64,000 bases of DNA. It comes from Candidatus Latescibacterota bacterium (GTDB lineage: Bacteria > Latescibacterota > UBA2968). The DNA lies in contig OZ242320.1 of NCBI GenBank assembly GCA_965208125.1, positions 5,152,001 through 5,216,000 of the forward strand, in the 5' to 3' direction. Shown here one piece after another: positions 50,012 through 56,200 of the stretch. Within the stretch, counting starts at the first letter, position 1. Each line of letters begins with the position of its first letter. A model generated the notes under the pieces. That model searched no databases. It saw nothing but the letters and a program-made list of their open reading frames with translations, and was not told where the DNA came from. The translations under genes and the position numbers were made by a program.

Positions 50012-50087
50012 TGGCAGGCCAGGCAGGACTTGAACCCGCAACCGTCGGTTTTGGAGACCGATGCTCTACCAGTTGAGCTACTGACCT
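50012..50087 (-). tRNA. tRNA-Trp: tRNA-Trp (CCA)
   Basis: 76 nt cloverleaf, anticodon loop CTCCAAA, TTCAA T-loop, encoded CCA end. Confidence 0.96.
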
Positions 50088-50098
50088 ACCCAAAACAA

Positions 50099-50174
<76 letters not shown>

Positions 50175-50199
50175 GTTGGGCAATCCCCACTTGAGGTTC

Positions 50200-50276
50200 T
50201 GGAGCGGGAAACGGGACTCGAACCCGCGACCCTCAGCTTGGAAGGCTGACGCTCTGGCCAACTGAGCTATTCCCGC
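50200..50276 (-). tRNA. tRNA-Gly: tRNA-Gly (TCC)
   Basis: 77 nt, anticodon loop CTTCCAA, GTTCGA, encoded CCA. Confidence 0.96.
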
Positions 50277-51732: not shown

Positions 51733-52479
51733 TCAATTCCAATACTCACTTCGTGCAGGCGGTCCAGACTTTAATGCCCTGCGGATCAACAGACCCAAAA
51801 CCCGGGTAAAAACCACTAATAAAAAAAAATTAAACATCGAAGCCAGCACCAACCCCACCCACGCCAACGGTTCCAATATCAAACTGCCGAGCAGAGATAT
51901 CCCAAACAGACCAAAACATGCTTGAACGTAGTCGAATCGAATAATCTGGCGCAAATCCCGCCAAACAGGCCCCGGCTCAAATGCCATCCACACGCGTCCC
52001 TCAGTGGCAAAACGCGTAAATACAATGGGAAAAAAACCGTAAAAAAAGATGACCATAAGTGTAAACAATAGCAACATAGGCCCGGCTTCTTCTACAGAAC
52101 CCGGTATCAAACCCAATACCGAAATCACCATTGCAAAACTCGCAAATCCAATGACACTATATCCCAGGACAATGAGGAATAACCAAAATCCCGCTACCCC
52201 GTAAGCCCACCAATTGCTCCATGATGGCAAGTGCAACGATTCAGTACCGTTGAGTGCATCGACAAAAATCCGGTATAAGTACCCCCAGGTAATGAACAAT
52301 AATCCAAAGATTACAACCAGCAATACCCCCCCCATCCAGAGCTTTATTTGCCCGGTGAGAATCAGAATCAGCACCAGCACGGACAGCAAATTTAATGCGC
52401 CGCCAGGGACAATTTTTTGCCACCAGCGCGGCGTCTTAAACAGGGAGCGAAGTGTATTAAACAAAATAATGCCAAACAT
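51733..52479 (-). CDS. Membrane protein, DUF4013-like
   Basis: 'WWQKIVPGG', 'GYLYRI', 'LPSWSNW'; about 6 TM helices. Confidence 0.6.
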   Translation of the reverse strand: MFGIILFNTLRSLFKTPRWWQKIVPGGALNLLSVLVLILILTGQIKLWMGGVLLVVIFGLLFITWGYLYRIFVDALNGTESLHLPSWSNWWAYGVAGFWLFLIVLGYSVIGFASFAMVISVLGLIPGSVEEAGPMLLLFTLMVIFFYGFFPIVFTRFATEGRVWMAFEPGPVWRDLRQIIRFDYVQACFGLFGISLLGSLILEPLAWVGLVLASMFNFFLLVVFTRVLGLLIRRALKSGPPARSEYWN

Positions 52480-52493
52480 AGCTTCCTAACATA

Positions 52494-53687
52494 TCAGACT
52501 GCGTCAAGTGCCCGTCCAACATCGACAATAATATCCTCAGCGTCTTCAATGCCCACAGCATAGCGCACCAACTCATCGGCAATGCCAATTGCCAATCGGT
52601 CTTCTCGTGCCAATTCGTAATACGAAATAGATGCGGGATGCGAAACGAGACTCTCCACACCTCCCAGACTGGCCCCTATACACGGAATTCGCAAGCGATC
52701 AATAAAATCCAGCGTCCCTGCCTCATCCGCATCTAAATCAAAACTCACCAGCCCGCCAAACCCACGCATCTGCGCTTTGGCAACATTGTGGTGTGGATGG
52801 CTTTCCAAACCGGGATAATACACGCGCTTTACCCGATCGTGCTTTTCCAAAAACCGCGCCAACATCAGCGCTGTTTCATTTTGCTTACTCATTCGCAGTG
52901 GGAAAGTCTTGATCCCCCGGATCAGCAAATAAGCGCAATGCGGGTCAATCACTCCCCCCAAAATACCTCGATAGTCCCGAATCGCACCAACAAGGGGCGC
53001 ATTGCCCAGCACAGCTCCAGCCATCAAATCGTTGTGTCCGCCCAAATACTTGGTCGCTGAATGAATGACCAGATCGATGCCAAATTCGAGCGGGCGCTGG
53101 TTTAAGGGCGTTGCAAATGTGCTATCAATAATCGTCTTGACCCGATGCCTTTTTCCAATGTCAACCAGTTTTTCCAGATCGATCACATTGAGATGTGGAT
53201 TGGTCGGAGATTCGGAAATAATTACCCGCGTGTTATCCCTGACTGCACCTTCTAATTCGGCGTAATCACCCGCGTGAACAAATGTGGTTTCAATACCAAA
53301 TTTTTTTAACACCATCTGACAAAATTGCGCGGTCTTGCGATAGCAATCATCCATAATCACCGCGTGGTGCCCGGTTGAGAGCATGCCCAGCAGCGTGGTT
53401 GTTACAGCACTCATACCCGACGAAAATAAAATAGCGGCCTCTGCGCCTTCCAATTCTGCGAGCTTGGATTCTGCGGCATGCTGTGTTGGATTGCCGTAGC
53501 GTCCGTAGTCAATCTGTGGGTTTTTGCCCGCTACAAACGCCTTAACCGCATGCGTATCTTCAAATACATAAGTCGATGTCTGGGCAATGGGCACTGTCAG
53601 AGATTTTCCCCAGTGTCCCCTTTCTTCACCTGCATGTACAGCCCGTGTTCCCGAACAGGGTCCGTGCGTTTCGCACTTTTCAGACAT
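52494..53687 (-). CDS. metB: Cystathionine gamma-synthase (Cys/Met metabolism PLP enzyme), plant-like signature
   Basis: 'YGRYGNPT', 'FSSGMSA', 'DCYRKT', 'ESPTNP', PLP lysine in 'HSATKYLGGHND', 'SLGGVESL'. Confidence 0.8.
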   Translation of the reverse strand: MSEKCETHGPCSGTRAVHAGEERGHWGKSLTVPIAQTSTYVFEDTHAVKAFVAGKNPQIDYGRYGNPTQHAAESKLAELEGAEAAILFSSGMSAVTTTLLGMLSTGHHAVIMDDCYRKTAQFCQMVLKKFGIETTFVHAGDYAELEGAVRDNTRVIISESPTNPHLNVIDLEKLVDIGKRHRVKTIIDSTFATPLNQRPLEFGIDLVIHSATKYLGGHNDLMAGAVLGNAPLVGAIRDYRGILGGVIDPHCAYLLIRGIKTFPLRMSKQNETALMLARFLEKHDRVKRVYYPGLESHPHHNVAKAQMRGFGGLVSFDLDADEAGTLDFIDRLRIPCIGASLGGVESLVSHPASISYYELAREDRLAIGIADELVRYAVGIEDAEDIIVDVGRALDAV

Positions 53688-53700
53688 GCGCTATCTCCAC

Positions 53701-53728
53701 AAAAAAAGCGGAGCTAAAAAAGCCCCGC
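53701..53728 (-). terminator. Riboswitch expression platform, terminator 2
   Basis: GCGGGGCT-ttttt-AGCTCCGC followed by T7. Confidence 0.75.
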
Positions 53729-53737
53729 GCAGTACGC

Positions 53738-53766
53738 AAAAAAACCGGACTAAAAAGCCCGGTTTT
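53738..53766 (-). terminator. Riboswitch expression platform, terminator 1
   Basis: CCGGGC-ttttta-GTCCGG followed by T7. Confidence 0.75.
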
Positions 53767-53774
53767 GGGAATAA

Positions 53775-53825
53775 CTTTTTAGCGACTTGTTTAAAGTGGC
53801 TGCAATATGCCGCAAATCACCACTT
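53775..53825 (-). ncRNA. SAM-II (SAM_alpha-type) riboswitch aptamer
   Basis: AAGUGG-UGAUUU-GCGGCAUAUUGCAG-CCACUU-UAAACAAGUCGCUAAAAAG: P1 AAGUGG/CCACUU, conserved UGAUUU and GCUAAA, pseudoknot GCGGC..UUG/CAAGUCGC; lies upstream of a methionine gene. Confidence 0.85.
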
Positions 53826-53844
53826 GCTATAACTGTATTTTGGG

Positions 53845-53873
53845 AATGTAACCAAAACCCTCAACCCTGTCAA
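53845..53873 (-). promoter_or_regulatory. sigma70 promoter driving riboswitch-metB
   Basis: TTGACA-17 bp-TACATT directly after the thrC stop. Confidence 0.65.
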
Positions 53874-55238
53874 CTATCGGTTGGCTTCAATTCGGTCGAG
53901 AATCGCCTTTTTCACAGCATCTACTTCAGGAGGCAACACAACGGGTTCATTGCGGTAATGCGGGCTTACGCCCCATTCCTGTAACTGATCGCGATGATAC
54001 CCGAGCTTAAATTCGCTAAACTTCAACCCGTGAGCCGTTGAAATCACGATCACGCGATCGCTTTTCTGAATTACGCCCCTGTCAATCAACTTGAACAATG
54101 CCGCGAAAGCCACCCCGGTGTGCGGGCAGGCAAACAAGCCCGTGCGGTCGGCACGGGCAGCCGCGTCGGCCAATTCTTCCTCGCTGGCTTGTTCTACAAC
54201 ACCGCCGAATATTTTGAGTGTTTTGATCGCTTTTTCCCGACTCACCGGATTGCCGATCTGGATCGCACTCGCCAATGTAGGCTGTGCCTGAATCGGTTCA
54301 AAACTATCAAAATTCTTTTCAAAACTTCGATAGAGAGGATTTGCCCTATCGGCCTGGGCAACCGCAATGCGCGGCAACCTGTCAATTAAACCGAGGGCTT
54401 CCATTTCGAGAAAACCCTTACCGAGCGCACTCACATTGCCCAGATTTCCGCCGGGAATCACAACCCAATCGGGCACTTCCCAATCAAATTGCTGCACCAA
54501 TTCGATGCTGATTGTTTTTTGTCCCTCTACCCGTAGTGAATTCATCGAATTGGCCAAATAAATATTCTCCTCGTGGCAAATCTCCTGCACGAGCCTCATA
54601 CACCCGTCAAAGTCGGTTTCCAAACTCAGCACCAGCGCACCATTGGCCAGAGGTTGCAAAAGTTGTGCAGTCGAGATTTTGTCCCTCGGCAAAAAGACCA
54701 CCGATTGTATGCCCGCCGCCGCACAATACGCAGCCAATGCCGCTGAGGTGTCTCCAGTAGATGCACACGCAACCGCCGGAATACGCGCCCCCTCAAACAG
54801 CATCTGTTTCACCATGGATACCAGCACCGTCATGCCCAAATCTTTGAACGACCCCGTATGGCTGTTACCGCATTGCTTAACCCACAAATCCTCAACGCCA
54901 ATTTCTCGACCCAAACGCTCAGCCCAAAACAGATTGCTCCCCCCTTCGTACATCGACACCACATTGTCTTCGTGAACCACGGGACAGACCAGTTCTTTTT
55001 TTCCCCACACCGAACTGCCATAAGGCCATTCCGTAGTCATATAACGCTTATCAAACAACCCACGCCAATAACTGCCCGACTTGCGTTTGAGCACCTCCAT
55101 ATCGTGCGCCACTTCGAGCAACTCTCCACACTTTGGACATGCGTAAATCACATCCGTCAGCGCATATCGCCCCTCGCACCCTTGAAAACACCGAAACCAC
55201 GCATTGTAAGTTGTATAATTCATATTTTCGTTACGCAT
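53874..55238 (-). CDS. thrC: Threonine synthase, plant-like class
   Basis: '[16 protein letters not shown]' (PLP lysine), '[11 protein letters not shown]', 'PGGNLGN', 'STAHGLKF'; alternative start 55223. Confidence 0.92.
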
Positions 55239-55295: not shown

Positions 55296-55556
55296 TTATT
55301 CCAATGGAGCTATTTTGCCGGGATCCTCTAAATCTTGTACTCTTTCCCAGGCTACTCGCAATTCCGCTTGATGCAAAGACGCCCAGCGAAGCACAAGTCG
55401 TTGCTCTCTTGTCGGTAAGAATCCTTTTAGTACTTCAAGAGTTTCAATTCCAATAACAGCCTGATTACCACCATACAGTGCGTGAAAATGCGCTGGCGGA
55501 TGTTCTCTAAAATGAATTTGGATGATAATTCCGTAAAAGCGACAAAGTTCAGGCAT
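55296..55556 (-). CDS. DUF4160 domain protein (putative toxin)
   Basis: 'MPELCRFYGIII..EHPPAHFHALYG', 'WASLHQAEL'. Confidence 0.85.
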   Translation of the reverse strand: MPELCRFYGIIIQIHFREHPPAHFHALYGGNQAVIGIETLEVLKGFLPTREQRLVLRWASLHQAELRVAWERVQDLEDPGKIAPLE

Positions 55557-55833
55557 TCTCAATCGCAACTTGTGCGCCCGGCATCACTTCATCCACAGAC
55601 TTGCCCGTGAGTTCCATATATAGCGCGTCAGAACAAATATCCAGATCATCGCCCCAGGCTATTGCACCCCCTTCTGCGACTCGCACAGTCTTAAAAAATG
55701 TGCGGTCATTCCAGGCTGCAAACACGCCGCGTCCAGCCATATCCGATAAGTCTATCTCGCCCGCGACCCCATCCGAATAGCGCACCCAAATACAGTAACC
55801 ATCACGCGGTTCTACGGCAATTGGTCGTATCAT
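55549..55833 (-). CDS. DUF2442 domain protein (putative antitoxin)
   Basis: 'YSDGVAGEIDL', 'FFKTV', 'IAWGDDLDICSDALY'; 8-nt overlap with DUF4160. Confidence 0.85.
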   Translation of the reverse strand: MIRPIAVEPRDGYCIWVRYSDGVAGEIDLSDMAGRGVFAAWNDRTFFKTVRVAEGGAIAWGDDLDICSDALYMELTGKSVDEVMPGAQVAIENA

Positions 55834-55900
55834 AGCACTTCTCCTTTTGCTACTGTTTCGTCTATATTTATCGCCATAATCGCAGACGTGTCGGCTACCA

Positions 55901-56200
55901 TCATTTCGGAAGCCCCTGATCATCGTATAACTCATCCTGCCAGACTTTGGATGGCGGATTATTTTCGTCGTATTTGTCAGGGTTTTCTTCACGCCAGCGG
56001 CGTCCGGCTGCACTTAAAAGCTCATACTCCTCCGCTATTTCCTCAGGCGTCATCTTTCGACATACTGGAGCCGTTTGGGCTTCCAGATCGTCCAGTGCCT
56101 TATGAAGCATCTGCTCCACTGCGTCCGGACCAGCAAAGCCCAGCCGACTTGCTAAATCAGCTATGCGAGTTTCTGTTTCCGGCTTGAGCGTTGTAGCCAT
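55901..56200 (-). CDS. VapB-type antitoxin (Rv0623-like), no cognate toxin adjacent
   Basis: N-terminal 'KPETETRIADLASRLG' and C-terminal 'LYDDQGLPK' typical of this family. Confidence 0.6.
   Translation of the reverse strand: MATTLKPETETRIADLASRLGFAGPDAVEQMLHKALDDLEAQTAPVCRKMTPEEIAEEYELLSAAGRRWREENPDKYDENNPPSKVWQDELYDDQGLPK

Follow-up and report, generated by a model that had tools for sequence, protein, structure and literature searches.

The question raised by this locus is how a single SAM-II aptamer can control two consecutive predicted terminators that lie between it and its gene. SAM-II is the textbook minimal pseudoknot riboswitch. To our knowledge, mechanistic study of this class has dealt with the translational form only. 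An earlier note on the window (the whole stretch of 64,000 nucleotides that was analysed) had described a promoter, a SAM-II pseudoknot, two hairpins with U7 tails and a ribosome-binding site. We find all of these elements on the minus strand, in that order and at the positions given there (Table 1). Downstream of the thrC stop codon, the promoter is followed by the aptamer, the terminators T1 and T2, the GGAG motif and the ATG. Our analysis indicates that the riboswitch is probably a kinetic OFF switch of transcription, in which the aptamer tail is directed at the terminator loop, for a PLP enzyme of the methionine pathway in Latescibacterota.

Table 1 Features of the riboswitch leader and of the adjoining genes (window coordinates)
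Feature	Position	Strand	Details
thrC (threonine synthase) CDS	53874..55238	-	TIGR00260 223 bits vs cut-off 167; PF00291
Sigma-70-like promoter (predicted)	53845..53873	-	TTGACA-17-TACATT, 10/12 matches; -35 TTGACA 53873-53868, 17-nt spacer, -10 TACATT 53850-53845; predicted start near 53838
SAM-II (SAM_alpha, RF00521) aptamer	53758..53833	-	45.4 bits vs gathering 36, E 5.1e-7; P1: 53824-53819 pairs with 53800-53795
Aptamer 3' tail GCUAAAAAG	53775..53783	-	Aligned to model ...UCGCUAAAgAG; invariant in 21/21 genus members
Predicted terminator T1	53738..53762	-	CCGGGC-UUUUUA-GUCCGG (53762-53745) + U7; stem 53762-53757 / 53750-53745, loop UUUUUA 53756-53751, U7 53744-53738
Predicted terminator T2	53701..53728	-	GCGGGGC-UUUUUUA-GCUCCGC (53728-53708) + U7; stem 53728-53722 / 53714-53708, loop UUUUUUA 53721-53715, U7 53707-53701
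Shine-Dalgarno GGAG	53695..53698	-	7 nt ahead of ATG (53687-53685); invariant in genus alignment
Regulated gene, 397-aa Cys/Met-metabolism PLP enzyme	52494..53687	-	PF01053 439.8 bits
DUF4013 protein gene	51733-52479	-	Next after the PLP enzyme gene
DUF2442 protein gene	55549-56013	-	Upstream of thrC
Three consecutive tRNA genes	50015-50276	-	RF00005, 67.8-72.2 bits
Hairpin within thrC CDS	54138-54158	-	8 pairs, 7 G-C, then poor T tract

Judged by its sequence, the locus is a genuine and otherwise ordinary SAM-II aptamer, which presumably binds SAM. The covariance model RF00521 recognises it with a score above the gathering threshold, in agreement with the class named in the earlier note, and the match is full-length (model positions 1-79 of 79) in the window search as well as in the whole-genome search. 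The leader is not a tandem riboswitch with two aptamers: the match is the only one in the window and in the 5.75-Mb genome. Both the P1 stem of SAM-II with its conserved loop (GAUUUG...UUGCAG) and the junction and tail (UAAA..AA..CGCUAAA.AG) are present, and these columns are invariant in all 21 members of the genus. The conserved partner sequences of the P2 pseudoknot and triplex are present as well; the Rfam model and RNAfold score no pseudoknots. According to the passages on structure in PMC5352136 and PMC2258182, the tail is the 3' strand of the P2 pseudoknot, which is stabilised by SAM.

The aptamer precedes the gene of a Cys/Met-metabolism PLP enzyme, a leader position typical of SAM-II, which is found ahead of methionine and SAM genes. 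The earlier note had called this gene metB. Its sequence places the product in the family of cystathionine gamma-synthase, O-succinylhomoserine sulfhydrylase and methionine gamma-lyase, an assignment at the level of the family. Every NCBIfam equivalog falls under its cut-off on the protein, and metB can therefore be kept as a family-level name only. Neither of the neighbouring DUF4013 and DUF2442 genes has an evident link to methionine metabolism. The three tRNA genes lie further along the same strand.

The stop codon of thrC adjoins the sigma-70-like promoter, upstream of the riboswitch, and no terminator is found between this stop codon and the riboswitch. The promoter is plausible, though not statistically distinctive: the region contains 1 promoter-like site, against a mean of 0.6 in shuffled sequence. 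TTGACA and TACATT-like hexamers are retained in the upstream flanks of relatives. The hairpin inside the thrC coding sequence resembles a terminator and is probably not functional.

Contigs of relatives were retrieved from four RNA-library runs in a search at 85% likeness and are mostly 90-99% alike to the locus. The leader, both terminators and the ORF are spanned by X15 (53335-53839), X17 (53300-53824), X18 (53300-53821) and X16 (53300-53874). As assembled contigs, these data show the leader and the ORF on one piece and are uninformative on starts, ends and levels, so that they speak neither for nor against regulation. Contig X16 diverges upstream of 53874, indicating that thrC is not always the upstream neighbour. 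In a screen of runs with sampled words of the locus, no run contained more than 0.29 of the words. Contigs like window positions 53300-54300 (X15-X18) are present in coral and sponge metatranscriptome libraries.

Both T1 and T2 have the form of an intrinsic terminator, a G+C-rich hairpin with a U tract immediately behind it. In our own hairpin scan T1 has 7 pairs and an energy of -10.4 kcal/mol, and T2 has 8 pairs and -13.4 kcal/mol. The two hairpins are present in the MFE and in the centroid fold (z -2.88). A consensus terminator scan listed T2 and missed T1; our own hairpin scans recovered both. A third terminator-like match (53741-53723) has 3 G-C pairs and overlaps the U tract of T1 and the 5' arm of T2. 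We regard it as a weak alternative hairpin rather than a terminator.

The aptamer tail is complementary to the loop and 3' arm of both hairpins, as the earlier note had observed. The tail GCUAAAAAG(U), at 53783-53774, forms 10 contiguous pairs, 2 of them G-U, with GCUUUUUAGU of T1 at 53758-53749; the 9-nt complement given in the note, CUUUUUAGU, corresponds to 53757-53749. With UUUUUUAGC of T2, at 53721-53713, the tail GCUAAAAAG forms 9 contiguous pairs, including 1 G-U. The complement takes in the final 1-2 bases of the 5' arm, then the loop, and ends 2-3 bases into the 3' arm. An alternative helix on the 5' arm of the terminator, the arrangement of a classical expression platform, is not found here.

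Such complementarity is rare in the genome. The control set consisted of 3,544 terminator-like hairpins from both strands, of which 39 (1.1%) have at least 8 contiguous pairs with the tail in the loop region. At least 9 contiguous pairs are found in 13 of the 3,544, and T1 and T2 are among them. Ranked by the energy of the duplex with the tail, T1 is 14th and T2 72nd. Eight matching control hairpins, seven of them from the group of 39, have no SAM-II-like tail upstream and were taken as chance matches.

The leader was folded with P1 enforced, either with the tail free or with the tail and P1 loop blocked to mimic SAM binding. When the tail is free, the tail:T1-loop helix is part of the MFE structure at transcript lengths of 88-91; at 124-127 this structure combines the folded T1 with a tail:T2-loop helix. 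The terminator wins once either 3' arm is complete. When the tail and P1 loop are blocked, the terminators alone form. The energies are -7.5 to -10.4 kcal/mol for AT1 as compared with -11.5 to -15.4 kcal/mol for T1, and -29.5 kcal/mol for the AT2 state as compared with -30.2 kcal/mol for T1 and T2 together. In both comparisons the antiterminator is the weaker structure, and antitermination can therefore only be kinetic, not thermodynamic. The available time window is short, because only a few nucleotides separate the emergence of the loop from that of the 3' arm. The tail:loop helix of 9-10 bp should exclude the remaining stem of 4-5 bp, since the two together would form an H-type pseudoknot with zero-length linkers, an arrangement that is presumably impossible on steric grounds.

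Based on these features, we propose the following sequence of events. Transcription would start at the promoter that overlaps the thrC stop codon, or reach the leader by read-through from thrC. With SAM bound, the P2 pseudoknot and triplex would retain the A-rich tail GCUAAAAAG, T1 would fold and T2 after it, and RNA polymerase would terminate at the U7 tracts. When SAM is scarce, the free tail would pair with the U-rich apical loop and the first 3'-arm bases of the emerging T1. This helix would be incompatible with the short T1 stem, so that closure of the hairpin would be delayed past the decision window and the polymerase would read through. T1, being more stable, would form afterwards and free the tail, which could then repeat the process at the loop of T2. 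The target is the loop and not the 5' arm, probably because the complement of an A/U-rich strand cannot be a G+C-rich arm.

The layout is widespread among relatives. RF00521 was found in 57 of 61 related genomes and in 15 of 17 genera. We analysed 65 of the 68 matches; G051:C12, G029:C30 (below gathering score) and G028:C99 were left out, and L239, whose genome is flagged as unpublished, was excluded from every analysis. A hairpin with a U tract is present within 170 nt in 61 of the 65 loci. The loop region pairs with the tail of its own locus over at least 8 contiguous pairs in 56 of the 65 loci (57 genomes), which corresponds to 13 of 15 genera and, counted by distinct hairpin sequence, to 35 of 46, and over at least 9 in 49 of the 65; since the genomes are related, these locus counts overstate independence. 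The apex C-UUUUU-(A/G)-G stays constant while the stems differ completely among genera. Nine of the 65 loci do not have a loop with at least 8 pairs: 4 have no called hairpin and 5 fall below 8. All three loci with an AAAAGG tail are among these 5. In genus g6, the first hairpin is weak, and the loop UUAGCGGC of the second hairpin pairs with the adjacent tail segment GUCGCUAA.

Within the genus of this genome, the aptamer and T1 are almost invariant, and the sole change in T1 (G010) preserves the pairing. Conservation is higher in these two elements than over the initial 30 codons of the regulated gene, in which third positions vary. A comparison of relatives for one versus two terminators, which the earlier note had suggested, gave both T1 and T2 in 20 of the 21 members. 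The exception, G018 (locus L002), has lost the 5' arm of T2 and kept T1, and it represents a natural single-terminator variant.

The loop of T2 is the fast-evolving part, with five states in the 21 species. The form CUUUUUUAGC is shared by this genome and one other, CUUUUGUGGC occurs in 15 of the 21, and three further forms are rarer. CUUUUGUGGC has only 6 contiguous pairs with the tail. It is conceivable, though rather unlikely, that T1 alone is controlled by the riboswitch, with T2 being an unregulated back-up or attenuator, or a remnant of a T1 duplication whose resemblance to a tail complement was inherited and not selected. The variability of the T2 loop, the species that has no T2 and the rank of the T2 duplex energy, only 72 of 3,544, agree with such a reading, as does the likeness of T1 and T2 in loop and tract sequence. 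This resemblance may reflect duplication, so the matches of T1 and T2 to the tail are not independent. The Bc1 c-di-GMP-I riboswitch of the Bacillus cereus group (PMC11218506) provides a precedent. Bc1 likewise has one aptamer, its two Rho-independent terminators are spaced by a few tens of bases, and only its T1 unfolds; the second terminator stays folded and masks the response of the first. Bc1 differs in its ligand, and at the present locus both loops complement the switching strand.

Several observations argue against an unregulated T2. A constitutive terminator of this strength (-13.4 kcal/mol, U7) would limit expression even at low SAM. The common CUUUUGUGGC variant, modelled as a bulged duplex with the tail, has an energy of -9.2 to -9.4 kcal/mol and still ranks 49 of 3,544. 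In the apo MFE at lengths 124-127, the tail is paired to the T2 loop. Strong complements in the second hairpin exist in other genera; g9, g11 and g17 again have tandem terminators whose loops are complementary. In L046 and L053 both hairpin loops are complementary, T1 by eye and T2 with 11 and 10 pairs, respectively. The tandem loops of L065 have 10 and 8 tail pairs, the second hairpin of L007 has 11, and the second loop of g6 pairs as described above. We count these recurring tandem loops as evidence for regulation of T2, although they do not prove a hand-off of the tail.

Regulation of T2 by such a hand-off is plausible. The combined proposal is more tentative: that the free tail is passed from the T1 loop to the T2 loop, giving two samplings of SAM per transcript, and that loop invasion is perhaps the standard platform of SAM-II riboswitches with A/U-rich tails. 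We consider this possible and, taken as a whole, doubtful. If the hand-off takes place, a single sensor would achieve a steeper response, similar to that of a tandem riboswitch.

The pairing between tail and loop extends beyond Latescibacterota. When named genomes were scanned with a sequence pattern, this layout turned up behind SAM-II aptamers of Omnitrophota, Gemmatimonadota, Calditrichota, Melioribacteraceae and other Bacteroidota MAGs; the scan is biased by its pattern and is therefore used for breadth only. Unbiased RF00521 searches centred on three of the pattern-scan genomes supplied variant tails. Covariation was assessed by our own counts of contiguous pairs and motifs, without a formal statistic, and the genomes are related, so the events are not independent. 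In L185, the tail GCUAAAACGCU forms 11 pairs with the loop GGCGUUUUAGC, combining AAAACG with CGUUUU. L247 is of the same type, with 9 pairs, and L244 shares the 8-nt motif CGUUUUGG with L247, its hairpin not being called. In L243 (AAAGAG with UUCUUU), the tail UCGCUAAAGAG and the loop UUCUUUGGCGG form 11 pairs including 3 G-U. The Melioribacteraceae locus L187 (G065) contains two complete tandem SAM-II units, each with its own terminator, of which unit 1 combines AAAUAG with CUAUUU and unit 2 AAAAAG with CUUUUU. L255 may hold three aptamer-like units.

Motif counts in 106 loci outside Alphaproteobacteria follow the same trend. Of 80 AAAAAG tails, 56 have the motif [CU]UUUUU[AG]G downstream, as against 0 of 8 AAAACG tails. 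The counts for [CU]GUUUU[AG]G are 2 of 80 and 3 of 8, respectively. Many Gemmatimonadota loops pair with a shifted tail segment, GUCGCUAA(AA), and loops UUAGCGGC or UUGGCGAC match this part of the tail, GUCGCUAA, which is not U-rich. Taken together, these pairings suggest loop invasion in Latescibacterota, Gemmatimonadota, Calditrichota, Melioribacteraceae and Omnitrophota.

A different target is seen in Rhizobiales, where 71 of 101 genomes contain RF00521. Of 30 loci fetched, 21 have a called hairpin. The tail in these 30 loci runs on into a G+C-rich GGCCGG. Of the 21 with a hairpin, 17 have its best complement entirely within the 5' arm of the terminator, which indicates that competition between tail and terminator is general for SAM-II. 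GCGUC-type tails, found in most loci on the Ignavibacteria side, likewise have a 5'-arm complement (by eye). As far as can be read from sequence, the shared principle is that the tail is contested by the pseudoknot and the terminator, and the loop target accompanies A/U-rich tails.

These counts bear on the possibility that loop and tail, though complementary, do not form an antiterminator at all. The terminators would then be constitutive, or act via pausing, Rho or a riboswitch-derived small RNA, and the U-rich loops would serve, for example, folding kinetics or protein binding. The lower thermodynamic stability of the antiterminator helices relative to the terminators suits this explanation. 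In another riboswitch class, the kinetics are tuned by the loop sequence of the terminator, as stated in PMC11754884, and S. meliloti SAM-II leaders give rise to stable small RNAs, one terminator having no predictable antiterminator, as described in the relevant part of PMC9373788. We nevertheless consider this explanation improbable. The loops follow the tail variants (AAAACG/CGUUUU, AAAUAG/CUAUUU and AAAGAG/UUCUUU), some of them fit the shifted tail segment, which is not U-rich, and tail-complementary loops occur in only about 1% of the other terminators in the genome.

The kinetic OFF switch thus remains our preferred reading. Against it stand the weaker antiterminators, the brief time window, the lack of conservation of the T2 loop complement within the genus and the 9 of 65 loci without a match. 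The proposal of the earlier note that the free tail acts as an antiterminator is largely upheld for T1, whose loop complement recurs in 56 of 65 loci and for which variant loops match variant tails. For T2 it may apply as well.

A translational switch of the kind seen in the crystallised metX SAM-II, with incidental hairpins, is hardly credible at this locus: the structural literature describes the Shine-Dalgarno sequence as being sequestered by SAM-II (passages in PMC10907184 and PMC5352136), and the Gemmatimonadota loci L219 and L229, which by eye have no terminator and a GAGGA right after the tail, look translational, in a phylum that also has loop-directed terminators, but here the tail itself does not contain GGAG, and the GGAG at 53698-53695 lies 76 nt past it, outside the aptamer and behind two hairpin-plus-U7 elements.

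The earlier note described SAM-II as best characterised in Proteobacteria as a translational switch. A premise that SAM-II is mainly translational, which would make a terminator unusual, is not supported, as frequent terminators are reported in the SAM-II sections of PMC1273637 and PMC2258182. According to Corbino 2005, a terminator separates P2 from the ORF in many representatives of SAM-II (PMC1273637). Barrick and Breaker 2007 name terminators as the commonest SAM-II association and describe the gene-control mechanism as not experimentally established at that time (PMC2258182). The combination of SAM-II and a terminator has been known since 2005, and its presence alone is therefore not new. 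For S. meliloti, Scheuer 2022 predicted termination at metZ, and an antiterminator for the metA terminator was not predictable (PMC9373788). In the parts of the literature that were searched, we found no report of pairing between a SAM-II tail and a terminator loop; a related antiterminator may appear in the supplements of PMC9373788 and PMC1273637. Both the loop-directed wiring and the use of two terminators by one aptamer are apparently undescribed variants.

Known systems share individual features with this locus. Alphaproteobacterial SAM-II leaders (A. tumefaciens metA, S. meliloti metZ) have the same aptamer family, class of regulated gene, order of aptamer, terminator and ORF, and OFF logic (PMC1273637, PMC2258182, PMC9373788). 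The present locus differs from them in having two terminators per aptamer and in its host phylum, Latescibacterota. While the GGCCGG extension of the Rhizobiales tail pairs with the 5' arm of the terminator, the A-rich tail found here finds its complement in the apical loop and at the start of the 3' arm. The preQ1-I antiterminator is a hairpin that shares an arm of the terminator, and it is not known to be a tail-to-loop helix. This riboswitch differs in ligand and fold family, but likewise has a small H-type pseudoknot aptamer that captures its A-rich 3' tail when the ligand binds and otherwise leaves it available for anti-termination (PMC2258182).

The guanidine-IV riboswitch of mepA is also described as regulating through base pairing with an intrinsic terminator's terminal loop (PMC10907184). 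There the ligand promotes loop pairing and turns expression ON, whereas in our proposal the ligand removes the loop-pairing strand and turns expression OFF. Tandem SAM-II/SAM-II and SAM-II/SAM-V arrangements likewise offer two successive decision points, for which a steeper (pseudo-cooperative) response was proposed (PMC9481103). Sherlock 2022 lists 44 double SAM-II arrangements in the same paper. These tandem systems consist of two complete aptamers, whereas the present locus has one aptamer and two expression platforms.

The locus and its relatives provide a concrete wiring diagram for clades with an A/U-rich switching strand. With the complement hidden in the terminator loop, an earlier-forming helix of 9-11 bp could hold open a stronger hairpin. 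The natural covarying pairs of tail and loop constitute ready compensatory mutants, and the combination of one aptamer with two terminators is a simple system for asking whether repeated sampling sharpens the response. This layout could also serve as a compact blueprint in the design of synthetic terminator switches. The present data document the use of SAM-II in a candidate phylum without cultured members. In several Latescibacterota relatives, a second SAM-II precedes a gene of the zinc-dependent alcohol-dehydrogenase family in place of a classical methionine gene. An example is L010:318-1496 (-), with PF08240 and PF00107; by eye, the same is seen in L006, L058, L060 and L062-L064.
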